A stretch of DNA of 46,619 nt from Nitrospirota bacterium (GTDB taxonomy: Bacteria > Nitrospirota > Thermodesulfovibrionia > Thermodesulfovibrionales > JdFR-85), in contig JAADIE010000081.1 of the NCBI GenBank assembly GCA_013151495.1, positions 1-46,619 of the forward strand, given 5' to 3'. The position numbers and the translations under genes were made by a program. Below the pieces are notes generated by a model. That model ran no database searches and was not told where the DNA came from. It saw nothing but the letters and a program-made list of their open reading frames with translations. Shown here one piece after another: positions 20,355 to 44,798 of this stretch. Within the stretch, counting starts at the first letter, position 1; each line of letters opens with the position of its first letter.

Positions 20355-20570
20355 ATGATGAACTGCTGGGAGTTCAAGAAATGTGGAAGAGACAAAACTG
20401 GTGATTGTCCTGCTTATACTCGAAGGGCGGGTAAGGTTTGCTGGATTGTGGCAGGAACAATGTGTGATGGGGAGGTTCAGGGTACCTTTGCCAAAAAGAT
20501 TAGCACCTGTATCAAATGTGATTTCTATCAATACATGAATAAAGAGGCCAGAGATAAACTAAAATCCTAA
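20355..20570 (+). CDS. small Cys-rich two-CW domain protein
   Basis: NCWEFKKC..CPAY..CWIVAGTMC..CIKCDFY; SD GGGAGG/GAGG upstream. Confidence 0.85.
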   Translation: MMNCWEFKKCGRDKTGDCPAYTRRAGKVCWIVAGTMCDGEVQGTFAKKISTCIKCDFYQYMNKEARDKLKS

Positions 20571-21404: not shown

Positions 21405-22449
21405 CAGTAATCTCCTCACCATTCAGGGCAATGCTTTTGAGTTTCATACATACACTGGCCATGTCTATTCTGCCAGGGCAGGTAACTGTGCAGCGGCCAC
21501 ACCCCACACAACCAAAACTTTCAAGCACATCAGGGTAGTGTATCAGCTTATGGAAAAACCATCGTTTCGTTCTTTTTATCCTCTCTTCGTTGGGGAGTAT
21601 TCCACCAGCCAGCCTGGTAAAGCCTTTAAAAAGACAGCTATCCCACAGCCTTGCTCGTTCCACTGTGTCGTTATAACTTCTGTCGACCACTGTAAAGCAG
21701 GTACATAAGGGGCACTGGTATACACAACCACCACACTCAAAACACCTCGAGGTTATGCCCTGCCAGAAGCTGTCCTTGATGCGGCCTGATTTTATAAGTT
21801 GCCTGCTTTGCTGAAGGCTTATTCTTTTTTGAAATCGTGCCTTTGAGCTAAGCAATACCTCGTACTGGTCGTCGTAGTCTGATTTTTGTGGTCTACTAAA
21901 AAGAAAATGATAGTTCTTTATGATAGATATAGCCCACTCAGACTCGGCCTGAACAAAGTACCTATCTCCAAGGTCTGTAAGCTGTATATCGAAGCCCTGT
22001 TTAAGATAGGGGCCTGTGTCGAGTCCTATACAGAAACAGGTAGGGTCTGGGTTGTTGCAGACTATGGAGATAAGCAGGCTGTTTTCCCTGCGGCTTTTAT
22101 AATAGGGATCGGGCATCTCATCAATGAAAAATCTATCAAGAGTGTTCAGGGCTGCCACATCACAGGAGCGGAGTCCAAATATGACCCTTTTTGTTTTAGA
22201 GATGGAATCAACTACCCGGTCATCCTTTTTTGAGTACTCAAAGAGCCTTTCATACTGGGGCAGGAAAAACTCCTTGACGCTTGGTAGCAGGGACGGACAG
22301 TTTAACTCTATCTTATGGATATGCTCAACCTGTTTAAATACAATGTCTCCCACCTGATCGCGCATTGGTGCTATAAGCTGCATCTGGTTTCTCAGCTGTC
22401 GCAGCCAGTAAGACAGGTGGTTTTTATCCAGAATCCATTCCCTCTTCAT
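21394..22449 (-). CDS. 4Fe-4S dicluster subunit, AsrA / sulfhydrogenase beta (HydB) / FlxB-like
   Basis: GLRSCD, C..PDPTCFC, CFECGGCVYQCPLCTCF, WDSC, CVGCGRCTVTCP. Confidence 0.88.
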   Translation of the reverse strand: MKREWILDKNHLSYWLRQLRNQMQLIAPMRDQVGDIVFKQVEHIHKIELNCPSLLPSVKEFFLPQYERLFEYSKKDDRVVDSISKTKRVIFGLRSCDVAALNTLDRFFIDEMPDPYYKSRRENSLLISIVCNNPDPTCFCIGLDTGPYLKQGFDIQLTDLGDRYFVQAESEWAISIIKNYHFLFSRPQKSDYDDQYEVLLSSKARFQKRISLQQSRQLIKSGRIKDSFWQGITSRCFECGGCVYQCPLCTCFTVVDRSYNDTVERARLWDSCLFKGFTRLAGGILPNEERIKRTKRWFFHKLIHYPDVLESFGCVGCGRCTVTCPGRIDMASVCMKLKSIALNGEEITDEG

Positions 22450-24669: not shown

Positions 24670-24806
24670 TACCATCTTTTCTGAATATAAATTAATTTAA
24701 TGTTGCTATAACTATTATTCATGATTTATGCTTGACTTAATGCCTGAAGGCATGTTATTACTTATTGGCTTTTTTACCTACACCAAACCGATACACAGGA
24801 GGTCAA

Positions 24807-26114
24807 ATGGCACTTCTTACTTTCAAAGGTGGCGTTCATCCTCCAGAAAACAAAGAGCTTTCAGCAAAAGCACCTATCAGAGAGGCTGCACCGCCAAAAC
24901 AGGCAGTAATTCCTTTAAGTCAGCATATTGGGGCACCCTGTAATTGTGTAGTAGAGGTTGGGCAGGAGGTCAAAAAGGGGCAACTCATTGGTGAACCTAC
25001 TGCCTTTGTTTCAGCTCCGGTTCATTCTTCGGTGTCAGGAAAGGTGGTTGAGATTACCCAGATTCCTAATGCTATGGGCAGGCTGGTGCAGGCAGTGGTA
25101 ATCGACAACGATGGAAAGGAAGAATGGGCTCCCCTTCAGGATAATCCGGATTATATGAACCTATCACCAGAGGAGCTGAAGGAAAAGATTAAAAATGCAG
25201 GTATTGTTGGAATGGGTGGTGCAACATTTCCTACTCATGTGAAGCTCTCTCCACCAAAGGAAAAGCCTATTGATGTGGTTATTATCAACGGTGCCGAATG
25301 CGAGCCCTATCTCACAGCCGACCATAGATTGATGGTTGAAAATCCTGAACAGGTCATAGAGGGGCTCAAGATACTGATGAAAATACTGGGTGTTTCCAAA
25401 GGCTATGTGGGGATAGAGAACAACAAGCCCGATGCAATCGAGAAGATGACAGAGGCTGCCTCAAAGGAGCCAAACATTGAGGTCAAGGCCCTTCAGGTAA
25501 AGTATCCTCAGGGTGCTGAGAAGATGCTGATCAAGGCCATTATCGACAGAGAGGTCCCGGCTGGTGGACTACCCATGGATGTAGGGGTGGTGGTTCAGAA
25601 TGTCGGTACAGCCGTAGCCATTTTTGAGGCCTGCAGATATGGAAAGCCTTTGATTGAGAGGATTGTTACCGTTACAGGACGGGGTGTTAAAGAACCGGGA
25701 AATCTTAAGGCGAGAATCGGTACCCCAATAAGGCAGCTTATTGATGAGTGTGGTGGCTTTGTAGACAATCCCAAAAAGGTTATCCTCGGTGGACCAATGA
25801 TGGGTTTTGCCCAGTTTTCTCTTGATGTGCCTGTTACCAAGGGTACTTCGGGAGTTCTGGTATTATCTGAGACCGAGTATGTTTCTTCTGAGAAGTATGG
25901 CCCATGCATTCGTTGTGGCAGATGTATTGAGGCCTGTCCTATGGGGCTTATGCCTTTGATGCTCAGTATTCTTTCAGAAAAGGGCTTCTACGAGGATACC
26001 AGGGAATACAATATCATGGATTGTTTCGAATGTGGAAGCTGTACATATGTGTGTCCGTCAAAAAGACCAATCGTGCATCATATAAGATTGGCTAAATCAC
26101 TAATAAAAAGATAA
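24807..26114 (+). CDS. rnfC: Rnf complex subunit C
   Basis: TFKGGVHP, GMGGATFPTHVK, NGAECEPYLTAD, KYPQGAEK, two 4Fe-4S motifs. ATG 24807 with AGGAGG SD. Confidence 0.96.
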   Translation: MALLTFKGGVHPPENKELSAKAPIREAAPPKQAVIPLSQHIGAPCNCVVEVGQEVKKGQLIGEPTAFVSAPVHSSVSGKVVEITQIPNAMGRLVQAVVIDNDGKEEWAPLQDNPDYMNLSPEELKEKIKNAGIVGMGGATFPTHVKLSPPKEKPIDVVIINGAECEPYLTADHRLMVENPEQVIEGLKILMKILGVSKGYVGIENNKPDAIEKMTEAASKEPNIEVKALQVKYPQGAEKMLIKAIIDREVPAGGLPMDVGVVVQNVGTAVAIFEACRYGKPLIERIVTVTGRGVKEPGNLKARIGTPIRQLIDECGGFVDNPKKVILGGPMMGFAQFSLDVPVTKGTSGVLVLSETEYVSSEKYGPCIRCGRCIEACPMGLMPLMLSILSEKGFYEDTREYNIMDCFECGSCTYVCPSKRPIVHHIRLAKSLIKR

Positions 26115-26138
26115 ATAAATAACTAAAGGAGTGATAGG

Positions 26139-27149
26139 ATGGCAGTTACAAACAGGGATCAGGAGCTTGTAGTTACTGTTAGTCCACATGTAAGATCCGA
26201 TGAGTCTACTGCAAAGATAATGTGGACTGTTACATTAAGTCTTTTGCCTGCCTTTGCAATGTCGGTCTATTATTTTGGACCAAGAGCTGTTTATGTAACT
26301 GCCCTGAGTATTCTGGGCTGTTTGTTCAGTGAGTGGCTTGTCCAGAAAATGGCAGGCAGAGAGATAACCCTCTCAGACGGTAGTGCCTTCTTAACCGGTT
26401 TACTGCTTGGAATGAATATGCCATCATCGGTTCCATTTTATATTCCGCTGGTTAGTGCCTTTGTAGCTGTGGCAATAACAAAACAGCTTTTTGGAGGTCT
26501 TGGTTATAACATCTTTAATCCTGCTTTGATCGGTAGGGCCTTTGCCCTGATTACCTGGCCCAGGGCCATGACTACATGGTTTACGCCAACTGCAGCCTTT
26601 GTGGCAATGGATGCAAAAACCACTGCAACTCCTCTTGGGATACTGAAGGAAGAGGGGATGCATAAGCTGCTCGAGGTCTTTGGTGATAAGATGACCCTGT
26701 ATTACCAGCTACTTATTGGGCACAGGGCAGGTTCCCTTGGTGAGACATCGGTAATAGCGATATTAATTGGTGCTGCATTCCTGCTATACAAGAGATATAT
26801 TTCACTTCATATACCTCTTTCATTTCTTGCTACTGTGGCAGTGCTCACCTGGGTCTTTGGTGGGAAAGAAGGACTCTTTACGGGTGATCCTATCGTTCAT
26901 TTGCTTAGTGGTGGCTTGATGTTGGGAGCCTTTTACATGGCTACAGATTATGTAACATGCCCATCAGTAAAGACTGGTCAGATTATATTCGGAATAGGAT
27001 GTGGTGCCCTGACGGCTCTGATAAGGTTAAAGGCCGGTTACCCGGAGGGTGTTATGTTTGCCATACTGCTGATGAACTGTTTTACCCCGCTGATTGATCG
27101 CAATCTCAAGACAAAGGTCTTTGGCGCCAGAAAGGAGGCTGCGAAATGA
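26139..27149 (+). CDS. rnfD: Rnf complex subunit D
   Basis: SPH, KQLFGGLGYNIFNPAL, TTATPL FMN-Thr site, GSLGETS, MATDYVT. Confidence 0.96.
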   Translation: MAVTNRDQELVVTVSPHVRSDESTAKIMWTVTLSLLPAFAMSVYYFGPRAVYVTALSILGCLFSEWLVQKMAGREITLSDGSAFLTGLLLGMNMPSSVPFYIPLVSAFVAVAITKQLFGGLGYNIFNPALIGRAFALITWPRAMTTWFTPTAAFVAMDAKTTATPLGILKEEGMHKLLEVFGDKMTLYYQLLIGHRAGSLGETSVIAILIGAAFLLYKRYISLHIPLSFLATVAVLTWVFGGKEGLFTGDPIVHLLSGGLMLGAFYMATDYVTCPSVKTGQIIFGIGCGALTALIRLKAGYPEGVMFAILLMNCFTPLIDRNLKTKVFGARKEAAK

Positions 27150-27817
27150 CTTTCAAGGACATACTGAAGATAACCTTCAACCTCGTTGTCCTTTATCTGG
27201 CAGGTGGGTTGCTGCTGGCTGCTGTTTACGCAAAGACTTCACCAGTAATTTATCAGAAGAACGAGGAAGAAAAGAGGCAGGCCCTTCAGGCCATGATGCC
27301 AGAGGCCCAGGATATAATAAAACTTGGCGACTGGTACCCTCATGAAAAACACGCAGAGTACTATGAGGCTCGTAAATGCGGCGAAATTAAAATTAAAACC
27401 ATTAAGGATGAAAAGACCGGAAAAACAAAGGAAATAAAGGAGTGTATCGATCCAGAACCAATCGGTTATATTGTACAGACCTTTGGTAAAGGTTATTCAA
27501 GTTATATAAACATTCTATTTTCTGTTGATAAGAACTTTGTAGTTCAGAGGATGAATATTCTGCATCATGCAGAAACCCCTGGTTTGGGTGATGAAATTGA
27601 GAAAGACTGGTTTAAGAATCAGTTCAAGGGTAAGGACATAGATCATCTTGTGGTAGATAAAACAGGGACCAGGAAAGAATACATCCAGGCCATTACTGGT
27701 GCCACCATATCTACTAGGGCTGTTACAGAGGATGGTATTAAAAGGGGCCTGGAATTTTTAATAAAAGCCATCAAGGAAGGAGAGGTGGAACATGGAGCAT
27801 CAGGAAGAGAAGGTTAG
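27146..27817 (+). CDS. rnfG: Rnf complex subunit G
   Basis: N-terminal TM, KGYS, HAETPGLG, ITGATIST FMN-Thr site. Confidence 0.93.
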   Translation: MTFKDILKITFNLVVLYLAGGLLLAAVYAKTSPVIYQKNEEEKRQALQAMMPEAQDIIKLGDWYPHEKHAEYYEARKCGEIKIKTIKDEKTGKTKEIKECIDPEPIGYIVQTFGKGYSSYINILFSVDKNFVVQRMNILHHAETPGLGDEIEKDWFKNQFKGKDIDHLVVDKTGTRKEYIQAITGATISTRAVTEDGIKRGLEFLIKAIKEGEVEHGASGREG

Positions 27818-28433
27818 TTATCTTCAATTAATAAAAAATGGAGTCTTTAAGGAAAATACCATCTTCAGACTGGTTATCAGTCTGTGTCCATCTATTGCTG
27901 TTACCAATAGTGTGAGGAATGGATTCCTGCTTGGTGTAGCGGTTCTTTTTGTTCAGACCATGGTTAACACAACAGTGGCACTTCTTAGAAGGTTTATACA
28001 TCCACGAATCAGGATTCCCATCTTTATGCTGGTTATTTCCGGATGGGTTAGTGTAGTTGATATGGTAATGGCAGCCTATGCAAGGGCCGCCTATAAAGAG
28101 ATCGGTCTGTATATACAGATTATTGTTGCCTTTGCATCAATTCTGGCAAGGGCGGAGATGTTTGCCAGTAAGAACAGACCCCTGGCAGCTTTCTTCGATG
28201 GTTTTGGCTCGGGATTGGGATTCCTGGTAGCCCTTGTGATTATCAGTTTCTTCAGGGAACTGCTTGGTAAGGGCTCTCTTTGGGGTTTTCAGATTATCGA
28301 GGCAAAACCACTGCTTATAATGATAATGCCAGCTGGTGGTTTTATAGCTGTTGGTCTGCTGATGGGCTTTTTCAACTGGATCGATATTCGTTTCTATGGT
28401 GGTAAGGGTGCTGGTGGTGCATCCGGACATTAA
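27792..28433 (+). CDS. rnfE: Rnf complex subunit E (variant lacking the second conserved Cys)
   Basis: EN..F...LCPSIAVT, RIRIP, RAEMFA, RELLG, PAGGF; position in CDGEAB. Confidence 0.93.
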   Translation: MEHQEEKVSYLQLIKNGVFKENTIFRLVISLCPSIAVTNSVRNGFLLGVAVLFVQTMVNTTVALLRRFIHPRIRIPIFMLVISGWVSVVDMVMAAYARAAYKEIGLYIQIIVAFASILARAEMFASKNRPLAAFFDGFGSGLGFLVALVIISFFRELLGKGSLWGFQIIEAKPLLIMIMPAGGFIAVGLLMGFFNWIDIRFYGGKGAGGASGH

Positions 28434-28501
28434 GTAGTTGAATTTGGATCTGCTTATGTGGGATAATTAATAAAGTAATTAGTTTATAAAAGGAGGCTGC
28501 A

Positions 28502-29095
28502 ATGAGCAATGAATTTATAAAACTCTTCGAGCTTTTTATAGCAGCATCGGTAATTAACAACTTTGTATTTACACGCTTCCTTGGGTTATGTATCTTCTTT
28601 GGTGTTTCAAAGAAGATGGAGACTGCAATCGGAATGAGCATTACCTTTACAGCCGTTATGGTTATCGCAGCAGCCCTTAGCTGGCTGGTATTTACCTACA
28701 TCATGGTCCCTCTTGAGATAACATTCCTTAAGATAATCATATTTATTGGTATTGTAGCCGCTTTTGTGCAGGCAGCAGACACGATTATGCGTAAGGTTAG
28801 TCCGGGGTTATATTACAAACTGGGTGTTTATCTTGCTCTCATTTCAACTAACTGTATCATTATAGCGGTTCCGCTTATTAATGCTGGCGAACATTACAAC
28901 TTTCTCGAAAGTCTCTCCTTTGGTTTTGGTTCTGGAATCGGTTTTGCCCTTGCACTTGTTATAATGGCAAGTATTCGTGAAAAGCTTGAGCTTGCCGATG
29001 TGCCAAGGCCATTCAGGGGTATGCCAATTGCTTGGGTCACAACAGCACTTATAGCACTGGCATTTACAGGATTTTCAGGACTGATTACATTATAA
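28502..29095 (+). CDS. rnfA: Rnf complex subunit A
   Basis: NNFVFTRFLGLC, LISTNC, IREKL..DVP..GMPIA. Confidence 0.95.
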   Translation: MSNEFIKLFELFIAASVINNFVFTRFLGLCIFFGVSKKMETAIGMSITFTAVMVIAAALSWLVFTYIMVPLEITFLKIIIFIGIVAAFVQAADTIMRKVSPGLYYKLGVYLALISTNCIIIAVPLINAGEHYNFLESLSFGFGSGIGFALALVIMASIREKLELADVPRPFRGMPIAWVTTALIALAFTGFSGLITL

Positions 29096-29134
29096 AAATA
29101 CACATACTTTATAGCGTTTATGGAGGTCAGGTAA

Positions 29135-30307
29135 ATGATAGATTACAGCTTAGTAAATGAGATACTCAGGGCAATAGGCAGTCTTAATCTTGCAGAACTT
29201 ATTAATCATATTCCCCTTCCTCATGTTGGTGTGGGTGGTGGCATTGAGGCAAAGGAATCGGTTGATATTGTGCAGACCATAGAGTTTACCGCCATGTTTA
29301 TCTTTGGTGTTGGTGCAGTTTTTGGACTTGGCCTTGCCTTTGCTGCCAAAAAGTTTTCTGTAAAGCGTGACCCAAGGATAGATCAGGTCAGGGAATATCT
29401 GGCAGGCGCACACTGTGGTGCCTGTGGATATCCTGGCTGCGAACAGTATGCCGAGGCAGTTGTGCAAAACCCTGATGTGCCACCAAACCTCTGTACCCCT
29501 GGTGGTGAGAAGGCTGCAAAGATGGTTGCCCTGATTACCGGTAAAGAGGCTGTTGCTACAGAGCCAAAGTTTTCAAGGATAATGTGTCAGGGAGACTGGC
29601 AGAAGTCTACAAAGAGATTTAAATACGAGGGTGTTCAGGACTGCCGCGCTGCTGTGCTTGCAGGTGGTGGGGACAAAAGCTGTATTTACGGTTGTCTTGG
29701 ATATGGAACCTGTGCAAAGGTTTGTCCCTTTGATGCAATCCATATGAATGAAAACCATCTGCCCGTTGTCGATGTTGGCAAGTGTACAGGTTGTAGAAAG
29801 TGTGAGGCAGCCTGTCCGAAAAAGGTCATCGAAGTGCTTCCAGGCAGCAAGGCAGTGGTTGTGGCATGTCATAGCCGCGACAGGGGCGCTGATACCAGAA
29901 AGTACTGCCAGATCGGCTGTATCGCCTGTGGAGCCTGCGAGAAGGTATGCCCCTTTGATGCAGTAAAGGTGGAAAACAATGTCTCAAGGATAGATTACGA
30001 TAAGTGCCGTGTTTGTGGTCTTTGTGTTCGTAAATGTCCTACCAAGGCAATAGTTGATCATATGCCAACCAGGCCAAAGGCCTTTGTGATCGAGGAAAAA
30101 TGTATTGGCTGTAACGCCTGCATGAAGGTATGCCCTGTTAATGCTGCCTATGGTGAGCTGAAGAAACCTCACACCATTGATCAGTCCAAGTGCATTGGCT
30201 GTGGTATATGCACTGCAAGATGTCCTAAACAGGCTATTGACGGCACCTTTAATGCAAAAGAGGTATTCCGTCTGGCCGAGGAAAAGAGGAAGAAAAAGGC
30301 GGCTTAA
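29135..30307 (+). CDS. rnfB: Rnf complex subunit B (long polyferredoxin form)
   Basis: TM segment, CGACGYPGC..CTPGG, then six ferredoxin-type CxxCxxCxxxCP-like motifs. Confidence 0.93.
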   Translation: MIDYSLVNEILRAIGSLNLAELINHIPLPHVGVGGGIEAKESVDIVQTIEFTAMFIFGVGAVFGLGLAFAAKKFSVKRDPRIDQVREYLAGAHCGACGYPGCEQYAEAVVQNPDVPPNLCTPGGEKAAKMVALITGKEAVATEPKFSRIMCQGDWQKSTKRFKYEGVQDCRAAVLAGGGDKSCIYGCLGYGTCAKVCPFDAIHMNENHLPVVDVGKCTGCRKCEAACPKKVIEVLPGSKAVVVACHSRDRGADTRKYCQIGCIACGACEKVCPFDAVKVENNVSRIDYDKCRVCGLCVRKCPTKAIVDHMPTRPKAFVIEEKCIGCNACMKVCPVNAAYGELKKPHTIDQSKCIGCGICTARCPKQAIDGTFNAKEVFRLAEEKRKKKAA

Positions 30308-36247: not shown

Positions 36248-37102
36248 TTATTGTCCTGAAAACTCCCTTTTTTTGCTTTCGAGAAAATTCTGTAATTCCT
36301 CCTGGAAGATATCTCTCTGTTTTCTTATATGTTCAGGTATACGCATGTTGTATAGCTTAAGGCCCTCGTTTAGCTGGGCGCTGAAGACCTCCTGGAATGT
36401 GCCGTTAAGGATTGCCTCTTTGACCTTCTCGGGATTATAAAGAAGTATATCGGCCAGGATGGTTTTTACCAGTCTTCTTGCACGCTCAATGCCTTCGTCC
36501 GGGGATGAAGGTTCGGGTGCAGTTGGTTGTGGTTTTTCCGGGGCCTTTTGTTCAGATGGTGTCAGTTTTCTTTCTGCAGTAGGTTTTATACCAGCCTCAA
36601 GGTTCTTAACCTTCTGGATGAGCAGCTCCCTTATTTCATGGGTTTCTATGTAATCGTCTGCGCCGTGGAGATTTTCGGGCCTTCTTCTGTATTTGTCCTT
36701 GTCATATACACTACCAATAAGGATTACCTTAATATCTGAGGTCTCCTTTCTTTCCTTGATCCTTTTGCAGACCTCAAATCCGTAAATCTTAGGAAGTGTA
36801 ACATCTATTATCACCAGGAAAGGGTGTTCTTTCATTGCCTTTACCATGGCGTCTATACCGTCCTTGGAGACAAGCACCTCATAACCCTGGGCCCTTAATA
36901 CATCGGTACAGTCCTTTATGACATTGTCGTCCTGATGTGCCACGAGCACAAGGGACTTGTTTAGTTCTTTGAACTTCTTTTTTGCCTTCTTTACTAAAAA
37001 TACAGTGGTACATTTAGGACAGCGGAATCTGCTTCCCTCGGGTGAGACCTTTTCATCGGGTATCTTAAGTTTTACCTTGCACTTTGGACATACAACAATC
37101 AC
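36248..37102 (-). CDS. MJ0042-type zinc ribbon + atypical receiver + Pro-rich linker + RomX-like C-terminal domain
   Basis: CPKC..CPKC zinc ribbon; REC with IIDVTLP but no conserved Lys (ADDYIETHE); C-terminal ARRL..I..DI.LYN..G..LY. GTG start. Confidence 0.8.
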   Translation of the reverse strand: MIVVCPKCKVKLKIPDEKVSPEGSRFRCPKCTTVFLVKKAKKKFKELNKSLVLVAHQDDNVIKDCTDVLRAQGYEVLVSKDGIDAMVKAMKEHPFLVIIDVTLPKIYGFEVCKRIKERKETSDIKVILIGSVYDKDKYRRRPENLHGADDYIETHEIRELLIQKVKNLEAGIKPTAERKLTPSEQKAPEKPQPTAPEPSSPDEGIERARRLVKTILADILLYNPEKVKEAILNGTFQEVFSAQLNEGLKLYNMRIPEHIRKQRDIFQEELQNFLESKKREFSGQ

Positions 37103-37106
37103 TTTT

Positions 37107-37790
37107 CTACCTCCATCTTCTTAATGGCCTGCCTCTTTTTGGTAACCAGAGTTTAATGGTTAACAGTCCAAAAAAGAAACCTCCAATATGAGCAAACCAG
37201 GCAACGCCTCCCTCTAATCCAGCGCCCTTGCTGAGCAGACCGTTTAGAATCTGTATCAAACCCCAGAAACCAATAACTATTATAGCAGGAACCGTAATTA
37301 TCTCGATAAAAAACCCAAAGAATATTAAAGTATGCACTTTTGCATGTGGATAAAGCAAGAGGTAGGCCCCAAGTACACCAGCCACAGCTCCGCTTGCTCC
37401 AACCATTGGTATGGTGGACTGGGGTGAACTGAGGGCATGGGCATAGGATGCTATAATGCCTGAGAGCAGGTAAAATATAAGAAATCGTATGTGCCCAAGC
37501 CGGTCTTCCACATTGTTTCCAAAGATCCACAGATAAAGCATGTTTCCTATAATATGAAAAAAGCCACCGTGCATGAACATGGATGTAAAAAGAGTTATTG
37601 GTGCTGGCACTGGTTGAGGTGATTTTAAGCTGAGCAGAAATTTCGGTACAGCCCCATAATTGTAGACCACATACTGAAGCCCCCTGGGATGGAATATCTC
37701 CCAGAGGAAAACAAGGCTATTTATAACAATCAGCAGGATTGTAACATAGGGAAATCGTTCGGTCGGATTGTCATCTTTAAAGGGTATCAT
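37107..37790 (-). CDS. rhomboid family intramembrane serine protease
   Basis: SMFMHGG..HIIGNM, GASGA (catalytic Ser), AHIGG (catalytic His). Confidence 0.95.
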   Translation of the reverse strand: MIPFKDDNPTERFPYVTILLIVINSLVFLWEIFHPRGLQYVVYNYGAVPKFLLSLKSPQPVPAPITLFTSMFMHGGFFHIIGNMLYLWIFGNNVEDRLGHIRFLIFYLLSGIIASYAHALSSPQSTIPMVGASGAVAGVLGAYLLLYPHAKVHTLIFFGFFIEIITVPAIIVIGFWGLIQILNGLLSKGAGLEGGVAWFAHIGGFFFGLLTIKLWLPKRGRPLRRWR

Positions 37791-37801
37791 TTGATTGTTA
37801 A

Positions 37802-37830
37802 ATTATATGAAATGCTCGGGGTTATGTCAA
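37802..37830 (-). promoter_or_regulatory. consensus sigma70 promoter of the rhomboid / zinc-ribbon operon
   Basis: TTGACA-N17-TATAAT exact, 11 nt upstream of ATG. Confidence 0.85.
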
Positions 37831-37971
37831 TATAAATTTTGGAATTTAACTTATTAATCAAGCGGTTATAAGAATGTTTTAATGTAATATTTTTACTACC
37901 GTATGCTACTGTCAAAGAAACAAATATTTTTCTTGACAAATTTAAATAAAAATGATTTAATTATTAAAATT

Positions 37972-38991
37972 ATGTTAAAAAACCTTACATTTCCGGTTAC
38001 ACCTTCCGTTCTGATTGTTGATGACATACTGTCCAATTTGGAGTTGATTGAGGCAGTAGTTAAAGGGGAGGGTTACGAGGTTTTAAAGGCAATGAATGCC
38101 CGCGATGCCATTTCCCTGTTCGAGGAAAGGCAACCAGACATTGCAGTGCTTGATGTTATGATGCCCGAAATTGATGGCTTCCAGCTCTGTCAGATCCTTA
38201 AAGATATGGCAGGAAAGAGATACTTTCCCATAATCCTGCTTACTGCTTTAAATGACAAGGAAAGCCGCATAAGGGGTATTGAATGTGGTGCTGATGATTT
38301 TATATCCAAGCCTTTCGAGCCAAGGGCCTTTCTTGCAAAGCTCAAGTCACTACTTAGAATCAAATTCCTCTATGATGAACTTGATCATTCCGAAAATATA
38401 ATTCTTACCCTTGCTGTTGCCCTTGAGGCCAGAGACCCATACACCAGAGGACATTCCACAAGGGTTGGTGACCTTTCAAGGGAATTTGCCGAATATATTG
38501 GTCTGAGCAATTATGACCAGGATATGATAAGGAAGGCAGGGCTTTTACATGACATCGGAAAAATTGGTCTAAGTGAGACCCTTCTACTTAAACCATCAAG
38601 GCTTACAGAACAGGAGCATGATGTAATAAAGAGGCATCCTATTATTGGGGAGGAGATCTGTAAACCCCTTAACTCTCTGCAAATGATTCTACCTGCCATC
38701 AGGCACCATCACGAGAGATGGGATGGAAAGGGGTTTCCTGATGGGTTAAAAGGAGATGAGATTCCTCTTTATGCAAGGATTCTTTCAATTGTGGATTCCT
38801 TTGATGCAATGCTTTCTGAAAGACCCTATCGAAAGGGAAGGTCCTTTCGTGAGGTTCTGGAGATCTTCAAACGAGAAAGAGAGTATGGTCAGTGGGACCC
38901 TGTACTGGTAGGCAATTTTATCGAAATGCTTAATGTACTTGGTGAGGAATATATTGTTAACAACAGGATTGCCTATAAACTGGAGCGTTAA
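37972..38991 (+). CDS. REC + HD-GYP cyclic-di-GMP phosphodiesterase (RpfG-like)
   Basis: REC (VDD, LDVMMP, SKPF), HSTRV, LHDIGK, HHERWDGKGFP, RPYRK. Start moved to 37972 because TTGACA-N17-TTTAAT lies inside the longer ORF. Confidence 0.93.
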   Translation: MLKNLTFPVTPSVLIVDDILSNLELIEAVVKGEGYEVLKAMNARDAISLFEERQPDIAVLDVMMPEIDGFQLCQILKDMAGKRYFPIILLTALNDKESRIRGIECGADDFISKPFEPRAFLAKLKSLLRIKFLYDELDHSENIILTLAVALEARDPYTRGHSTRVGDLSREFAEYIGLSNYDQDMIRKAGLLHDIGKIGLSETLLLKPSRLTEQEHDVIKRHPIIGEEICKPLNSLQMILPAIRHHHERWDGKGFPDGLKGDEIPLYARILSIVDSFDAMLSERPYRKGRSFREVLEIFKREREYGQWDPVLVGNFIEMLNVLGEEYIVNNRIAYKLER

Positions 38992-38994
38992 TAA

Positions 38995-41900
38995 ATGATC
39001 AAGATTGCCCTGGCTGGAGGGAATGTAGCAGGGGGAGCCTTAATTTCACTTCTTAGAACCGAGCCAAATGTAAAAGTAGTAGCCCTATATGAAGAAAAAG
39101 CCGATGCCCCTGCGGTTATGCTTGCCCGCAAATGGGGCATTCCTGTTTGTACAAGACTTGAAGAGCTATCTGAATATCGGCCATCACTGGTTATAAATGT
39201 AATTGAAGAAAATATAGAGGCAGAGCTTAAGAAGGCCCTTGGTGAGCAGATCGAGATTATCAATCCTGGAGCTGCTAAACTCCTCTGGGATTTTATTGAG
39301 CGCCAGAAAAAGGCACGGGTCGAGACAATAAAGACTATCCAGAATATGAATACCCTTATATCTCTGACCACTGAGGCCTCCAGAGGGATAGAGGCTCCTT
39401 TCCTTAAAAATGCACTCAAAAGAGCACTGGAGATTGCTGAGGCACCTGCTGGAAGCATTGTAACTTACAAAGATAACAAATTACAGCTTCAATGCGCAGT
39501 GGGGCTTAGTAAGAGATTTATTGAAAATACAAGCTGGGAGATGATCCCGGGTGGGCTTACAGAAAAGGTTGTTAAGGAGAAAAAGACTATAGAGATATAC
39601 GACACCCTGACCAGTGATTTCAACAACCCATCACTGATGATAGAAAATATCAGGGCAGTGCTTGCAATGCCCCTTGTAAGGGCAGACCAGTGTGTTGGCA
39701 TCCTGTTTGTGGATGACTTTAAGCCAAGAAGATTTTCAACAAGGCAAAAAACAGCCCTTACGCTTTTATGCAGGATAACCGCAAATACCATTTTCTGGCT
39801 TCACCAGGTTCAGGACATTATTACAGTACAGGCCAGTTTAGATGCTCTCATGGACAGTGTCAACGATCTTGTGTTGATTACTGATCTGGAGGGAATCATT
39901 ACAGACTGTAATAGCAGATTTCTGGATTACAACCTGAGTAAGGCTGATCTTGTAGGTAAATCAATTGCAGATGTGATCAGTACTGAAAGCAATGGATTTC
40001 TTAATGAGGTTATTAAGAAGAGATCGGTAGTACACGAGCTAAAAGTAAATCTGACTGAGGAACTAAGTAAAAGGGCGGAGATAGAGGAGTTGAAACTCAA
40101 TGCCTCTCCTGTTAAGGATAAGTCTGAAAAGGTTCACGGGTATATTTTTGTACTTGAGGATACAACAGAGCGGCTCAGGCTACTGAGTGAGCTTGAACAG
40201 GCGAAGGAGTCTCTGGAGTCCCTGAACCAGATGCTTGAGCAGAAGGTGGTGGAAAGAACTGAGGCCCTTGAAAGGATGAACAGAGAACTTGAAAAGGCCA
40301 ATCAACTAAAGAGCAGATTTATTGCTAATATGTCTCATGAGCTTCGTACCCCTCTGAACTCCATAATCGGTTTTTCTGATATCCTCCTTGAGGAGACCTT
40401 TGGCAGCCTCACGGATGAACAAAAACGTTATATAAGAAATATCCAGAACTCCGGAAAGCACCTCCTTGAACTAATAAACAATGTACTTGACCTTTCAAAG
40501 ATCGACTCCGGTAGATATGAGCTCCAGTATGAGACCTTTTTTGTGGATGAGGTAATTCATGAAGTGGTGGAGACAATGAAGCCTCTGGCAGAGTCCAAAT
40601 CCCTGTCAATTAACATAAATATAGATCCTGAGATAGACACCCTTACGGCAGACAGGGTAAAGATTAAACAGGTTCTTTATAATCTTATCTCCAATGCTAT
40701 AAAGTTTACTCCTGAAGGCGGTAGCATACTGATTACTGCCCAGAGGGAAAAGATAAATGATGAGGATGCCGTGAGATTTGCGGTTAAAGACACGGGTGTT
40801 GGTATTCCACCCGATGACATCGACAGGATTTTTGATGAGTTCGAGCAGATAGACACATCTCTTTCAAGGCAGTACGGAGGAGTGGGGCTTGGGCTTGCCC
40901 TTAGTAAAAGGCTGGTAGAGCTTCATGGTGGCAGGATCTCGGTAGAAAGTACCCTTGGTAAGGGGAGCACCTTTTATTTCAGCATACCAACAGCCAGAGA
41001 GGTACCAAAAGAGGAGCCTGTTGAGAGGCCAGAAGAGGTGCTCGAGGCTGTTAAGCTAAACTATCCATGGACCAAAAAAGAGGCCCCCTTAATACTGGTG
41101 GTTGAGGATGACCAGCCAACCATAGAGCTATTAACAATACACCTTACGCAGGCCGGGTATAAGGTGGCCCACGCCTTCAATGGCGAGGAGGCAATAGAGA
41201 AGGCCCGAACCCTGAAGCCCTTTGCCATCACCCTTGATGTGATGCTTCCAAAGAAAGACGGCTGGGAAGTACTGCAGGAGCTTAAAAGTGACGAGACAAC
41301 GGCAAACATTCCTGTTATTATACACTCCATAGTGGATAACAAGGATCTTGCCTTTGCCCTCGGTGCAACCGATTACATATTAAAACCACTGGATAAAGAT
41401 ATACTTATCGAGAAGCTAAATGAGCTTGCTGCCACAAAGGCAAAGAAGGGGCTGCCTGCAACAGTGCTTTTAATCGAGCCAAAAGAGGAGGAGGCCCAGA
41501 AACTAAAGGAGATCCTTCAGGACTCGGGCACAATAACCTATGTTGCCAAGGATTTGAAAAAGGGGATAGAGCTTGCCATTGCCATAAGGCCAAATCTGAT
41601 AATGGTGAGTGTCGATTCAGATGATACCGATGGTTTTGATGTCATACAGGAGCTGAAGGCCTCGCCTGCAACAAAGGATATCCCTATCTTTGTGCTTTCT
41701 GAAAGGGACCTTTCCGTTGAGGAGAGGCTTGACATGCTTGGTAAGATAGACAGGATTATGAAAAAGAGGGCCTTTGATACCAAAGAACTTATCGAGCATA
41801 TAAAAGAGCTTGAGATTATATACCCAAGAAGGGCCGGGCTTGTTGACGACCTTACAGGGCTTTTCAGCCATCGTTACTTCCATATCAGACTTGCCCAGGA

Positions 41901-42351
41901 AATAGAACGGGCAGAACGATATAAGTTGCCATTGATACTTGTGATGATAGATCTGGACCATTTTGGAAACTACATCGAAAAGGCCGGACAATACAATGCC
42001 AATATAGTACTTAAAAAGGTTGGAGATCTGCTAAAAAGAAATATCAGGGGCTCGGATATTGTTGTACGTTATGGAGGGGATTCCTTTGCAGTGGTACTTC
42101 CTAATACGGTACTGAATGCAGGCATTTCACTAAGCAACAGATTTAATGCTATTATAAAAAACTTCCCCTTTCCTCAGGAGGAGGTTCAGCCAAAGGGAAG
42201 AATTACTGCCAGTGCAGGACTGGCCTTTTATTCAGGGCAGTCTCCTGAGGAGTTGATACTCTGTGCAGAAAAGGCCCTTTCTTATGCAATAAGCAAAGGT
42301 GGCGATAGAGTTGAGGTATTCTCAAAGGAGATCGAAACATTCAAGATCTGA
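38995..42351 (+). CDS. cytoplasmic hybrid histidine kinase: Rossmann-like-GAF-PAS-HisKA-HATPase-REC-pseudoREC-degenerate GGDEF
   Basis: SHELRTPL, NAIKFT, DTGVG, GLGLAL; REC1 LDVMLP..KP; C-terminal RGSD..RYGGDSF. Confidence 0.9.
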   Translation: MIKIALAGGNVAGGALISLLRTEPNVKVVALYEEKADAPAVMLARKWGIPVCTRLEELSEYRPSLVINVIEENIEAELKKALGEQIEIINPGAAKLLWDFIERQKKARVETIKTIQNMNTLISLTTEASRGIEAPFLKNALKRALEIAEAPAGSIVTYKDNKLQLQCAVGLSKRFIENTSWEMIPGGLTEKVVKEKKTIEIYDTLTSDFNNPSLMIENIRAVLAMPLVRADQCVGILFVDDFKPRRFSTRQKTALTLLCRITANTIFWLHQVQDIITVQASLDALMDSVNDLVLITDLEGIITDCNSRFLDYNLSKADLVGKSIADVISTESNGFLNEVIKKRSVVHELKVNLTEELSKRAEIEELKLNASPVKDKSEKVHGYIFVLEDTTERLRLLSELEQAKESLESLNQMLEQKVVERTEALERMNRELEKANQLKSRFIANMSHELRTPLNSIIGFSDILLEETFGSLTDEQKRYIRNIQNSGKHLLELINNVLDLSKIDSGRYELQYETFFVDEVIHEVVETMKPLAESKSLSININIDPEIDTLTADRVKIKQVLYNLISNAIKFTPEGGSILITAQREKINDEDAVRFAVKDTGVGIPPDDIDRIFDEFEQIDTSLSRQYGGVGLGLALSKRLVELHGGRISVESTLGKGSTFYFSIPTAREVPKEEPVERPEEVLEAVKLNYPWTKKEAPLILVVEDDQPTIELLTIHLTQAGYKVAHAFNGEEAIEKARTLKPFAITLDVMLPKKDGWEVLQELKSDETTANIPVIIHSIVDNKDLAFALGATDYILKPLDKDILIEKLNELAATKAKKGLPATVLLIEPKEEEAQKLKEILQDSGTITYVAKDLKKGIELAIAIRPNLIMVSVDSDDTDGFDVIQELKASPATKDIPIFVLSERDLSVEERLDMLGKIDRIMKKRAFDTKELIEHIKELEIIYPRRAGLVDDLTGLFSHRYFHIRLAQEIERAERYKLPLILVMIDLDHFGNYIEKAGQYNANIVLKKVGDLLKRNIRGSDIVVRYGGDSFAVVLPNTVLNAGISLSNRFNAIIKNFPFPQEEVQPKGRITASAGLAFYSGQSPEELILCAEKALSYAISKGGDRVEVFSKEIETFKI

Positions 42352-42829
42352 ACTGCTTTATGACTGTATTGAAACACCTGTTGGTCCGCTAAGCATAGTG
42401 TTTTATTATCCAGCCGGAAATACAACCAGGGCCTGTTTATTAAGGATAACCTTCTCACCAAGGGTTTCAGGTGCAAAAAAGACCCCTCTGCCAGAGTATA
42501 TCAAGAGGCAGTTCAGGGAGTATTTCAACGGCAATAGAAAGAGCTTTGATCTTTGTTATGAACTTAAAGGCAGCGAATTCGAAAAAGAGGTATGGGAGCT
42601 AACAGCATCCATACCCTATGGACAGACAAGAACCTATAAATGGATAGCTGAACAGTTAAAAAAGCCAGGTAGTGTCAGGGCAGTAGGGCAGGCCCTGAAG
42701 CGAAATGCCCTGCCCATTGTGGTTCCATGCCACAGGGTAATTATGTCGGATGGTGACATTGGTGGTTATTCGTCTGGCACGGAGATAAAGCGAAGACTGC
42801 TTGATTTAGAATACTACAGTAATCGATAG
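42299..42829 (+). CDS. ogt: methylated-DNA--protein-cysteine methyltransferase
   Basis: IPYGQTRTY, RAVGQA, PCHRV active site. The start is uncertain (GTG 42299 overlaps the upstream gene). Confidence 0.9.
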   Translation: MAIELRYSQRRSKHSRSELLYDCIETPVGPLSIVFYYPAGNTTRACLLRITFSPRVSGAKKTPLPEYIKRQFREYFNGNRKSFDLCYELKGSEFEKEVWELTASIPYGQTRTYKWIAEQLKKPGSVRAVGQALKRNALPIVVPCHRVIMSDGDIGGYSSGTEIKRRLLDLEYYSNR

Positions 42830-42836
42830 CCCGGAG

Positions 42837-44798
42837 CTAAAGCTCCTCGTAAAGGACGGTTTTGTTTCTGCCTTCCTGTTTTGCCCTGTAAAGGGCCTGA
42901 TCAGCCCGCTCTATTAAGTCTTCACGAGTCCTTGCATCTTCAGGATAGGAGGCAATACCCAGACTTAATGTAACATTGATATCTGCTGTGTCGGTTTTAA
43001 CAGTAGTCTGTTCCACCTTTTTGCGCAGACGTTCGGCTATCTTTTTGGCCTCTCTTGCAGTTGATTTAAGGATTATCAAAGCAAATTCCTCACCACCGTA
43101 TCGTGCCGGGAAATCAATCTCTCTTACTGCCTTACGAATGATTTCGGCTATTTTTTTCAGGACAGCATCTCCGGCAGGATGCCCGTAAGTATCATTTACC
43201 TTTTTAAAATGATCGATATCAAGAAGTATCAGGGATACTGGTTCTGTGTAGCGGTCTGCCCTTTTAAGCTCTTCCTGTAAACGCTCCTGAAAGCGTCTGT
43301 GATTGTATAGCCCTGTTAGACCATCTGTAAAGGCCATCATCTTTATTTCTTCATGCAGCATTGCCTTTGATGCACTCTCAGAGGCCTGGTAAAGATAGAC
43401 CTCCAGCAGATGGCGCTGGATCTGGTTGAAGGCATCCCTTTTTGATGAAAAAACAGCCACCATGGCCTGTACCCTTTTTTCAATAATCAGTGGTACAACA
43501 AACATGCTCTTGGGATTTACTCCGTTAAGAGGTAGCGCCTTTTTCTTATACATGGCAAGATCTGAAAAATACAGGGGTTTTTTGTTACTCCTTATCAACT
43601 CAAGCAGGGTTTCTTTAAGCTTTTTAATACTGACTTTTTGCTCCTTGATGATCAGTTTGTCTGGTTTGTAGATCCTGTAGCTACTGTTTGTACGCCACAA
43701 AAGTACAGCGGAGCCCCCAGTAAGGGCCTCTGATGACTCCACTATCTTCTGAAGTATCTCATCCAGTTCTATTACCTCTGACAGGGATGAGCCATGTTCA
43801 TGGAGCATGGAGATTGCCTTGTATGAGAGCTTAATCTGAGAAAACATCCTCTGCCTGCCAAGACTTCTGGCAATCTCTTTTGCTATAAGATCCACTACCG
43901 ATTGATCCTTCTCGGTAAAGGCCCTGTAACGGATACTCTCTACACAGAGCACACCAAGGGGTATCTGATCGTCCACTACTGGTGAGGCAATCAGGCTTTT
44001 GATTCTCTCTCCACTGTAATAACCAGGGTTTTTGATTTCACCCTCTTCGGCCCAGATAAGAATGGATTTTTTCTGGAGAAGGACTTCATAAATTATTCCT
44101 TCATCCACAGGATTGCATTCCGTGTCTTTTGCTGAACAAAGACAGGTGAGTTCACCATCTCTGTAGACAAAAATATGAGCATTGTCGGCCACCGTTGCCA
44201 CCTGAGATAGTAACATCAATTCTTCAAGTTCCTCTTTGAGGCTCTTTTCTTCTGAATAAAAGGAGGAAAGAATAAGGTCTTCATCAAGGTGATGACTTGT
44301 CTCAGCAAGCTCCTTTGCCTGGCTTTTAAGTGATGAGAGCCTTTGGCTGAGTGACTCCAGTGATTCCTTATGTTGGTGGGTAATTCCCCAGATCACAATA
44401 GATGAAAAGATGCTATAAAGAATTATCCAGATAGAAGGATTACTAATTGACAGTGTGGTCAGGAGCTCTTTAAGGTGAACAAGGGGTTGAAATGCGATAA
44501 CCATTATCAGGGCCTTGAGCCCGATAAAATTAACACTTACTGCCATAACAGGAATATGTACATAGTGGATAATATCAAGCCTGGTTATCTGGTATAGGGC
44601 TTCAGCTATGCTCTGTAATATAAAAACAGGCAACCACGCATACAGGGCCTGCCAGCCCTTATGGTAGCAGTATCCTAAAAATACAGCTAATGCTGATGAG
44701 GTTAAAATTATGTACAGAGGGGTTTTCTGGGATATGCCTGAGTAAAGAACTCCACACTGAAGGGCTACTAACAGTACTGGCAGAAGGATATTGATCAG
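42837..44798 (-). CDS. membrane diguanylate cyclase (multi-TM, GAF, GAF, GGDEF)
   Basis: DGLTGLYNHR, DIDHFKKVNDTYGH, REID I-site, GGEEF. The frame is open to 44828 with further hydrophobic segments. Start proposed at CTG 44798; the ORF track starts at TTG 44633. Confidence 0.88.
   Translation of the reverse strand: MINILLPVLLVALQCGVLYSGISQKTPLYIILTSSALAVFLGYCYHKGWQALYAWLPVFILQSIAEALYQITRLDIIHYVHIPVMAVSVNFIGLKALIMVIAFQPLVHLKELLTTLSISNPSIWIILYSIFSSIVIWGITHQHKESLESLSQRLSSLKSQAKELAETSHHLDEDLILSSFYSEEKSLKEELEELMLLSQVATVADNAHIFVYRDGELTCLCSAKDTECNPVDEGIIYEVLLQKKSILIWAEEGEIKNPGYYSGERIKSLIASPVVDDQIPLGVLCVESIRYRAFTEKDQSVVDLIAKEIARSLGRQRMFSQIKLSYKAISMLHEHGSSLSEVIELDEILQKIVESSEALTGGSAVLLWRTNSSYRIYKPDKLIIKEQKVSIKKLKETLLELIRSNKKPLYFSDLAMYKKKALPLNGVNPKSMFVVPLIIEKRVQAMVAVFSSKRDAFNQIQRHLLEVYLYQASESASKAMLHEEIKMMAFTDGLTGLYNHRRFQERLQEELKRADRYTEPVSLILLDIDHFKKVNDTYGHPAGDAVLKKIAEIIRKAVREIDFPARYGGEEFALIILKSTAREAKKIAERLRKKVEQTTVKTDTADINVTLSLGIASYPEDARTREDLIERADQALYRAKQEGRNKTVLYEEL

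Follow-up and report, generated by a model that had tools for sequence, protein, structure and literature searches.

A likely RomX equivalent with a zinc ribbon and a degenerate receiver domain in a Nitrospirota bacterium

Here we describe a 284-residue protein of a Nitrospirota bacterium in which a zinc ribbon, a degenerate receiver, a flexible linker, and a RomX domain follow one another in a single chain. Its gene occupies positions 36248 to 37102 of the minus strand in the window, by which we mean the whole 46,619-nucleotide stretch of DNA that was analyzed (contig JAADIE010000081.1, assembly GCA_013151495.1); it starts with GTG and ends with a stop codon at 36248 to 36250. The three domains noticed in a sequence-only reading were recovered when the open reading frame was read, when it was compared with Pfam, and when it was searched against PDB sequences. 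The protein lies outside the myxobacteria, as that reading supposed, its relatives being named Nitrospirota or Thermodesulfovibrionales. We detected 396 relatives, with query coverages of 94 to 100% among the 120 listed. A protein atlas search returned unnamed clusters only, with scores of at most 0.82, below the level taken as a lead.

A gene for a rhomboid-family intramembrane protease (37107 to 37790, minus strand; Pfam PF01694, E 4.5e-36) lies directly upstream. Its stop is 4 nt before the GTG of the RomX-domain gene, so the two genes are probably cotranscribed, and a Shine-Dalgarno sequence, GGAGG (37110 to 37114, minus strand), precedes the GTG by 7 nt and so falls within the 3′ end of the rhomboid gene. 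A sigma-70-like promoter match, TTGACA-17-TATAAT (37802 to 37830, minus strand), agrees with the consensus at 12 of 12 positions upstream of the rhomboid gene and is a consensus match only. The rhomboid gene is directly upstream of the orthologue in all 12 loci examined. Together with groESL it makes up the conserved neighborhood in the 11 loci compared, and these neighbors are silent on polarity. Genes for a hybrid kinase and a REC-HD-GYP protein lie next to the locus in divergent orientation. A link to these neighboring c-di-GMP genes was considered and rejected, full-length matches to the REC-HD-GYP protein being confined to the same-genus locus among 11 compared.

The zinc ribbon (residues 1 to 37; 36992 to 37102, minus strand) is of the MJ0042/ZitP/GltJ type. 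Its ligands are supplied by two CPKC motifs, C5/C8 and C28/C31, which the sequence-only reading had picked out, and residues 1 to 35 match the Pfam model Zn_ribbon_4 (PF13717) with 43.6 bits against a cutoff of 30.3 (E 2.8e-11). It is modeled as four short strands with pLDDT above 90. The likeness to GltJ (AgmX) to which that reading pointed was borne out by the PDB search, in which the top match was 7zok_A, "Adventurous gliding motility protein X" (E 1.4e-5); 2nb9_A also matched (E 8e-5). The GltJ N-terminal ribbon (PDB 7ZOK) and the one described here are both PF13717-type domains with cysteines at 5, 8, 28, and 31, and the ZitP protein of Caulobacter has a ribbon of the same type. As in GltJ, the ribbon adjoins a flexible linker and an element that binds MglA-GTP, the latter predicted here. 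GltJ, however, is a membrane protein in which a linker motif and a GYF domain accompany the ribbon, whereas here the partners are a receiver and a RomX domain in a soluble protein. According to the published account, the GltJ ribbon binds MglB at its C-terminal helix (PMC11135422). By analogy with GltJ or ZitP, the present ribbon may serve as a docking site.

The receiver (residues 48 to 170; 36593 to 36961, minus strand) matches Pfam Response_reg (PF00072) over residues 52 to 164, with 47.3 bits against a cutoff of 30.2 (E 2.7e-12), and receivers of DivK, RpaA, and PhoP were among the Foldseek matches to the whole-protein model. The fold of a phosphorylatable receiver is thus retained, but the set of acceptor Asp, conserved Lys, and acidic pocket is not. 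The end of beta5 (...GADDYIETHEI) lacks the Lys, as the sequence-only reading had claimed, and none of 30 aligned relatives has a Lys at position 153 or 154. His56, near the acidic pocket, is invariant in the 30 relatives, the register of the pocket being judged from secondary structure only. The degenerate receiver probably acts as a phosphorylation-independent interaction surface. It is unlikely, in our estimate, that a histidine kinase instead phosphorylates Asp100 and so frees or masks the RomX domain, with two-component signaling gating MglA. Such a switch would fit the acceptor Asp present here and in 17 of the 30 relatives, Ser131, kept in 28 of 30, and the adjoining hybrid kinase and REC-HD-GYP genes. 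Against it stand the Lys missing from all 30 relatives, the invariant His where the acidic pocket is expected, and the acceptor column itself (D17/G6/E5/S2), in which 13 of the 30 relatives have G, S, or E although the remaining domain is conserved; the kinase and HD-GYP neighbors, moreover, are matched at full length only in the same-genus locus among the 11 compared.

The receiver is followed by a Pro-rich linker (residues 171 to 200; 36503 to 36592, minus strand), which the model leaves disordered, its pLDDT falling below 50 over residues 177 to 197. The stretch IKPTAERKLTPSEQKAPEKPQPTAPEPSSPDEG contains 8 Pro in 33 residues, in agreement with the earlier description, and the length and sequence of the linker differ among relatives. 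Because the full-length model has a pTM of 0.51, it does not fix the arrangement of the domains. Foldseek with this model returned receiver structures only, and the tail was for this reason folded separately.

The tail (residues 201 to 284; 36251 to 36502, minus strand) is a three-helix bundle homologous to RomX of Myxococcus, which keeps the cell polarity GTPase MglA in its active state. The stretch RARRLVKTILADILLYNPEKV...EGLKLY, in which the resemblance was first noticed at about 36270 to 36490, corresponds to residues 207 to 251 and lies within the tail. The homology, first proposed without database searches, is now computed in both sequence and fold. In a phmmer search of 177,635 distinct PDB sequences, 8zna_A, "RomX," matched with an E value of 1.5e-7 over an ungapped 74-residue alignment, and the next match had an E value of 0.52. 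In the reverse direction, M. xanthus RomX (taken from a Myxococcus genome that was located with a degenerate DNA pattern encoding a RomX peptide) matched a single protein of this genome, the one described here (E 1.3e-7). The model of the tail alone has a pLDDT of 93.3, and its top Foldseek match in the PDB is again 8zna (TMq 0.79, TMt 0.76, rmsd 1.8 Å over 82 columns, 29% identity), followed by a second-best match with a TM score of at most 0.38. M. xanthus RomX (PDB 8ZNA, 87 aa) and the tail thus share a three-helix fold and are detectably homologous in sequence, but the former belongs to a stand-alone type of about 87 to 95 aa, whereas the latter forms the C-terminal domain of a larger protein. 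Stand-alone forms also occur elsewhere in the phylum, such as an 88-aa protein in genome G069. The RomX domain family comprises 3,074 cluster representatives at E ≤1e-3, and among the strongest matches the domain is usually C-terminal and preceded by a zinc ribbon, a receiver, or both.

In helix 1 of the tail, R210, K213, and D218 are the counterparts of RomX R11, R14, and D19 in the alignment. According to a 2024 preprint, mutations at R11/R14 and at D19 abolished the exchange activity of RomX on MglA, and those at R11/R14 also lost binding (bioRxiv 10.1101/2024.02.20.581209). The helix 1 residues used for MglA interaction and exchange are therefore kept here, and they are conserved in 30 relatives: R210 in 30/30, a basic residue at position 213 in 30/30 (R26/K4), and D218 in 30/30. 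A complex of residues 198 to 284 with the genome's own canonical MglA, GTP, and Mg was predicted with a score of 0.76 (runs 0.74, 0.77, and 0.76), against 0.04 for the best of three controls; helix 1 was placed on MglA-GTP, at least 91% of contacts were common to the runs, and the partner pLDDT was at least 88. Among solved complexes 116 of 157 attain the pass mark for this score, and among mismatched pairs 2 of 215 do, rates that apply only roughly here, since our own alignments and ligands were used. RomX is present in the PDB copy searched as one single-chain entry, so that copy holds no complex with RomX that the predictor could have reproduced. The predicted interface joins residues 210 to 222 and 243 to 254 to MglA residues 20 to 22, 82 to 86, and 108 to 115, the same MglA surface as in the MglA-RomX model of the preprint (bioRxiv 10.1101/2024.02.20.581209). 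The tail is thus predicted to bind MglA-GTP through helix 1. The two partners also occur in one chain in nature: in protein P0129, an MglA-like GTPase (46% identical to the MglA of this genome) is joined to three RomX domains.

The polarity genes that the sequence-only reading asked for are present elsewhere in the genome. Adjacent mglB and mglA genes lie on contig C98, with matches to M. xanthus MglB (3.3e-56) and MglA (2.7e-97), and a RomR orthologue is encoded on contig C89, with a receiver 47% identical to that of M. xanthus RomR over 126 aa (E 4e-40) and, in addition, the helix at the C terminus. Type IV pilus genes are also present. The linker of RomR in this lineage is Glu-rich rather than Pro-rich, for which reason a scan for Pro-rich proteins missed it; it was found by searching with the M. 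xanthus RomR receiver. The genes around romR (valS, nadC, and others) gave no functional clue, and the RomX-domain gene is adjacent to neither mglBA nor romR. Like M. xanthus RomX, then, the tail occurs in a genome that encodes MglA, MglB, and RomR. No stand-alone RomX was found in this genome, in which the RomX domain is confined to the gene described here.

Among 401 genomes surveyed in the phylum, 162 have both the RomX domain and MglA, 21 have MglA without the domain, 4 have the domain without MglA, and 214 have neither, a table that overstates the association because related genomes are not independent. In 13 of the 21 MglA-only genomes the match is at paralogue level only, which leaves 8 genomes with a full MglA match and no RomX-domain match. 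At an arbitrary threshold of E ≤1e-30, RomR does not track MglA: it is found in 28/35 genomes of family f3, 9/9 of f7, and 0/64 of f25. Both f3 and f7 are without RomX, and their MglA-like matches are at most paralogue-level (5/35 and 1/9, respectively).

On contig C117 the genome also encodes a second MglA-type protein, a paralogue with a long tail (307 aa, 54% identity to MglA), the neighbors of which gave no functional clue. That the RomX domain serves this paralogue, and not canonical MglA, finds an argument in the presence of such a protein but is quite improbable: six genomes with only a paralogue-level match (G247, G229, G259, G352, G304, and G400; E 1e-59 to 1e-68) all lack a match to the RomX domain, families in which MglA has one full match carry the domain (for example, f24, 7/7), and the complex prediction passed with canonical MglA, the one partner modeled.

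The sequence-only reading interpreted the protein as a possible Rosetta-stone fusion; in this view RomR (receiver plus Pro-rich linker) and RomX are joined in a single-chain GEF that would replace the two-protein complex. The order of receiver, Pro-rich linker, and RomX does resemble RomR followed by RomX, M. xanthus RomR being likewise a receiver followed by a low-complexity linker, and the absence of a stand-alone RomX from the genome fits as well. The separate RomR orthologue on C89 largely refutes this interpretation, which we regard as highly improbable. RomR's C-terminal helix that binds MglC/MglB is conserved on the C89 protein, whereas the C terminus here is the RomX domain. Nor does the fused receiver resemble RomR more than it resembles ordinary receivers: an OmpR-type regulator heads its M. 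xanthus matches (2.8e-14, 38%), with RomR 11th of 44 receiver matches (3.4e-9, 29%), and the RomR receiver searched against this genome ranks the C89 protein first (1.3e-36) and the fused protein 11th of 25. Relatives with a zinc ribbon and a RomX domain but without a receiver exist (12/80 in one set of relatives). In M. xanthus RomX, W87 inserts into the interface with the RomR receiver; the tail described here, ...NFLESKKREFSGQ, stops two residues short of that position, and none of 30 relatives has a Trp in the aligned C-terminal columns. The helix 3 and tail determinants for the RomR receiver, a Leu-Arg pair and the terminal Trp87, are accordingly not found, although basic K277/K278 are conserved. 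With W87 missing, binding of the RomX-type tail to the RomR receiver is predicted to be weak or absent, and any link to RomR is putative. The GEF label itself is disputed, RomRX being called an MglA-GTP effector in a second preprint (bioRxiv 10.1101/2024.10.31.621274). Of the earlier interpretation, the RomX homology, the GltJ-type ribbon, and the presence of mglBA therefore stand, the fusion and the claim that the module is undescribed do not, and the GEF label is open to dispute.

That the protein is a conventional response regulator whose helical output is unrelated, its RomX resemblance being without functional meaning, is a negligible prospect: three-helix bundles are common and the tail is matched by no model of Pfam or NCBIfam, but this reading is contradicted by the specificity of the RomX match in the PDB sequence search and in Foldseek, by the invariance of the functional residues, and by the tight co-occurrence of the domain with MglA.

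The search gave no stand-alone RomX, and the protein described here is therefore, most likely, the RomX equivalent of this lineage, an adaptor or effector that would bind MglA-GTP through helix 1 of its C-terminal bundle. Two putative interaction modules precede that domain, first the zinc ribbon and then the degenerate receiver, of which the ribbon may dock the C-terminal helix of MglB, as in GltJ, or a polar scaffold, as in ZitP. The protein would thereby recruit or stabilize MglA-GTP at a defined site, probably the cell pole, and this recruitment may govern a polar apparatus, for example the type IV pilus; both the location and the output are inferred. The polarity switch thus probably exists in rewired form in this Nitrospirota-like bacterium. 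More tentatively, and rather doubtfully as a whole, free RomX could have been replaced order-wide in Nitrospirota by a chain in which a pseudo-receiver separates an MglB-docking ribbon from an MglA-GTP-binding RomX domain, a GltJ-like self-contained switch that would unite or separate the GTPase and its GAP and would be cotranscribed with a rhomboid. If so, cotranscription with the rhomboid would couple the cycle of the polarity GTPase to a site at the membrane or to regulated proteolysis.

The architecture was thought to be undescribed but was already in print in 2024: the accessible part of a preprint reports uncharacterized AlphaFold database hits, such as A0A2N6E6P0, with the same domain set, a zinc finger with a tandem of receiver and RomX-like fold (bioRxiv 10.1101/2024.02.20.581209). 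To what that part gives for these tandem proteins, we add gene content, co-occurrence, residue analysis, and the prediction of a partner. As the architecture had been noticed and the function is inferred, the finding carries moderate weight only.

A distant anaerobic lineage holds the RomX module inside a larger protein, with MglA, MglB, and RomR separate. To our knowledge, nearly all that is established about the switch formed by MglA, MglB, RomR, and RomX comes from Myxococcus. The present arrangement is a natural experiment on what RomX needs RomR for and on whether zinc ribbons of the GltJ type serve generally as a handle for MglB or the pole. Because the RomX family is large, one characterized member would annotate many unexplained "response regulators."

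The zinc ribbon-receiver-RomX open reading frame (ORF; 36248..37102, minus strand) starts with GTG and encodes 284 residues. A Shine-Dalgarno sequence, GGAGG, lies 7 nt 5′ of the GTG, within the 3′ end of a rhomboid-family protease gene (37107-37790, minus strand) located directly upstream, the TAG stop of which is separated from the GTG by a 4-nt gap. The Pfam matches are Zn_ribbon_4 (residues 1-35) and a receiver (residues 52-164); residues 195-284 are covered by no Pfam or NCBIfam model. The full-length AlphaFold2 model, based on an alignment of 30 relatives, has a mean pLDDT of 86.8 and contains a four-stranded zinc ribbon, a receiver fold spanning residues 48-170, disorder at residues 177-197, and a helical C-terminal domain with a pLDDT of >90. 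Its pTM is 0.51, so the positions of the domains relative to each other are undefined. By ORF, Pfam, and model, every element named by the sequence-only reading was found where it had been placed; that observation is confirmed, and its interpretation is partly supported.

The tail alone was searched against all PDB sequences and gave a single significant match, Myxococcus xanthus RomX (8zna_A; E value, 1.5e-7; 74 residues, ungapped); the next match had an E value of 0.52. Folded alone, the tail has a pLDDT of 93.3 and a pTM of 0.82, and Foldseek against the PDB ranked 8zna best (TM, 0.79/0.76; rmsd, 1.8 Å; 82 columns; 29% identity), with the second-best match at a TM of 0.38. The RomX homology proposed by the sequence-only reading is borne out by both searches. 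Against six-frame ORFs of the genome, M. xanthus RomX and a stand-alone RomX encoded elsewhere in the phylum each matched only this ORF (1.3e-7 and 7.7e-13, respectively), and no second RomX domain was found with these two queries or with the family HMM at an E value of 10 or better. According to the cited sections of the preprint on the RomX structure (bioRxiv 10.1101/2024.02.20.581209), RomX R11A/R14A abolishes MglA-GTP binding and D19A abolishes exchange activity. R11, R14, and D19 align with fusion residues R210, K213, and D218, where the 30 relatives have R (30/30), R (26) or K (4), and D (30/30), respectively. The same sections describe a terminal Trp of RomX that inserts into the interface with the RomR receiver; no counterpart was found in the fusion or the 30 aligned relatives. 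The RomR-contact pair is numbered Leu-75/Arg-76 in section 8 of that preprint and 76/77 by counting along M. xanthus RomX (L044/8zna_A, W87 last), a one-residue numbering difference.

The assembly (1.73 Mb, 128 contigs, 95.6% complete) encodes the other switch components that were proposed for checking. Contig C98 carries mglB (161 aa; 3.3e-56 against M. xanthus MglB) followed directly by mglA (195 aa; 2.7e-97 against M. xanthus MglA). In a named M. xanthus genome, RomR was recognized by a Pro-rich stretch (29 Pro in 60 residues) together with its C-terminal helix. Its receiver, as a query, retrieved first a 430-aa protein of contig C89 (14256-15545, minus strand; L138) with an E value of 1.3e-36, the next match being 5e-21. 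This protein has 47% identity to RomR over 126 residues of the receiver and 47% identity to RomR 378-411 in its C-terminal helix; its linker is Glu-rich (23% Glu), not Pro-rich. With a RomR-like receiver and C-terminal helix, it indicates that RomR is encoded separately from the fusion. Pilus-type genes are also present, with five T2SSE-family ATPase matches above the cutoff and a match to PilM at 256.8 bits, as is one flagellin-type match. Contig C117 (region 41379-41963; L039:4662-5585, minus strand) encodes a further MglA-like GTPase with 54% identity to MglA; it has an acidic, coiled-coil-like C-terminal tail of ~110 residues and adjoins a GAF-GGDEF gene.

The proposal of a Rosetta-stone fusion of RomR to RomX is largely refuted by the separate RomR on C89, by a fused receiver that is not RomR-like, and by the receiver being optional in the wider RomX-domain family. 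Against the M. xanthus genome, the best match of the fused receiver is an OmpR-type regulator (2.8e-14, 38%), and RomR ranks 11th of 44 (3.4e-9, 29%); with the RomR receiver as the query, the fusion ranks 11th of 25 in the genome under study. A 164-aa protein from a genome of the same class (G022, L037:4989-5483, minus strand) joins a zinc ribbon, a Pro-rich linker, and RomX without a receiver, which shows ribbon plus RomX to be the more basic unit. From its sequence, the fused receiver looks degenerate. Among the 30 relatives, the acceptor Asp column reads D (17), G (6), E (5), and S (2), a Lys at the end of β5 occurs in 0/30, His56 near the acidic pocket is invariant, and there is little or no variation in an LPKIYGFE loop and a YRRxP insert. 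The best solved relatives of the zinc ribbon are the GltJ/AgmX ribbon (7zok_A, 1.4e-5) and 2nb9_A (8e-5), and its Cys residues at 5, 8, 28, and 31 occupy the positions reported for GltJ. In GltJ, as described in the cited part of that study (PMC11135422), MglA-GTP binding to the adjacent linker releases the ribbon; the freed ribbon docks onto the C-terminal helix of MglB, with a ~fourfold gain in GAP efficiency. By analogy, the fusion ribbon may likewise be released and bind MglB.

A complex was predicted from the genome's own MglA (21-sequence alignment) with GTP and Mg and fusion residues 198-284 (30-sequence alignment). It scored 0.76 (runs, 0.74, 0.77, and 0.76), with the best control at 0.04, at least 91% of contacts common to the runs, and a partner pLDDT of at least 88. 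This passes a mark reached by 116/157 solved complexes and 2/215 mismatched pairs, which is only approximate here, as our own alignments and ligands were used. The predicted contacts join helix 1 residues R210, L211, K213-I215, A217, D218, L221, and Y222, together with tail residues 243-254, to residues 20-22, 82-86, 108, 111-112, 114-115, and 122 of MglA. The same surface appears in the AlphaFold model of MglA-RomX in the RomX preprint, which places R11/R14 with MglA E108/E111/E115 and D19 near switch II (bioRxiv 10.1101/2024.02.20.581209). RomX is a single chain in one entry in the PDB copy searched, so a RomX-MglA complex was not recallable from that source. The model supports binding of MglA-GTP by the C-terminal domain, the bundle of which would capture MglA-GTP; the zinc ribbon and pseudo-receiver may be docking surfaces for MglB, a polar scaffold, or RomR that place or time this capture. 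The suggestion of a RomX-containing MglA regulator stands as to the RomX domain and the predicted contact; the GEF label is disputed for RomRX itself. The cited sections of the RomX preprint report stimulated exchange yet binding to the GTP form only (bioRxiv 10.1101/2024.02.20.581209), and those of another preprint conclude that RomRX acts as an effector rather than a GEF (bioRxiv 10.1101/2024.10.31.621274); the same dispute extends to the name for the fusion.

MglA of the genome under study (E value, 1e-40 or better) and the RomX domain alone (1e-3 or better) served as queries against 401 genomes of the phylum Nitrospirota, giving 183 MglA-positive and 166 RomX-positive genomes. Counted row by row, 162 contain both, 21 MglA only, 4 RomX only, and 214 neither; the genomes are akin and not independent, so these counts represent a pattern and not a statistic. 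Among the MglA-only genomes, the best MglA match is weak in 13/21 (1e-42 to 1e-68), at the level of the 54%-identical paralogue, and full in 8/21; two of the four RomX-only genomes have completeness values of 63% and 79%. Both proteins are present throughout families f1 (7/7), f4 (5/5), f10 (4/4), and f24 (7/7) and absent from f6 (0/14) and f30 (0/28). MglA and RomX are found in 63/64 and 64/64 genomes of f25, 0/75 and 1/75 of f29, and 11/11 and 6/11 of f28, respectively. RomX is absent from f3 (0/35) and f7, where MglA-like matches are at most paralogue-level (f3, 5/35, all weak; f7, 1/9); RomR-like matches at 1e-30 or better also occur in these families (28/35 and 9/9, respectively). The class of the genome under study has exactly one RomX match per genome in 55/55 RomX-positive genomes. 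Most f25 genomes have two, one long fusion and one free ORF of ~90-100 aa; among the free copies, one of 88 aa is Trp-terminated like M. xanthus RomX.

The RomX-domain family comprises 3074 representatives at 1e-3 or better, of which 635 reach 1e-10 or better. Of the 150 best, the first 80 were sorted by their Pfam matches (E value, 1e-6 or better): 16 have zinc ribbon and receiver, 19 receiver only, 12 zinc ribbon only, 1 an MglA-like GTPase, and 32 no other domain at that threshold. In representative P0129 (805 aa), three RomX domains are joined to an MglA-like GTPase that is 46% identical (4e-57) to the MglA described here, making this protein a true Rosetta stone for the MglA-RomX pairing. 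Up to five tandem RomX domains occur in P0121 (968 aa) and others, and two f37 genomes have five RomX-domain matches each, those listed lying within ORFs of 893-967 aa.

The order rhomboid-fusion-groES-groEL is conserved in 11/11 related loci (L004-L014) from five families, the fusion being 47-76% identical. In a genome of another class (L040), rhomboid is again directly upstream and the downstream gene differs, so the pairing holds in 12/12 loci examined, from several families and two classes. A perfect TTGACA-17-TATAAT match precedes the rhomboid gene, and the minus strand showed no terminator-like site between rhomboid and the fusion. The probable operon adjoins a c-di-GMP gene cluster (37903-44633) containing a REC-HD-GYP gene (37903-38991, plus strand), a 1118-aa GAF-PAS-kinase-REC-REC-GGDEF hybrid (38995-42351, plus strand), and a GAF-GAF-GGDEF protein (42837-44633, minus strand). 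The window also contains an operon for an Rnf-type complex (RnfC, D, G, E, A, and B-like) and hydrogenase maturation genes hypF and hypD (24765-30307 and 4101-7455), as well as a molybdopterin oxidoreductase accompanied by Fe-S and FAD partners (20559-24545, minus strand).

Literature searches found nothing linking RomX with Nitrospir*, and RomX with "zinc ribbon" and receiver matched only the GltJ paper. The description of the module as undescribed does not hold. In the cited sections of the RomX preprint, the commonest annotated RomX Foldseek hits in the AlphaFold database are response regulators that combine a receiver and a RomX-like fold in tandem, frequently accompanied by a zinc finger, and are called uncharacterised (bioRxiv 10.1101/2024.02.20.581209), so the architecture was already known as an observation. 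New here are that the fusion is the sole RomX found in a genome retaining MglA, MglB, and RomR, that its contact residues and predicted interface are conserved, that its receiver looks degenerate and is not RomR-derived, and that it is paired with a rhomboid gene.
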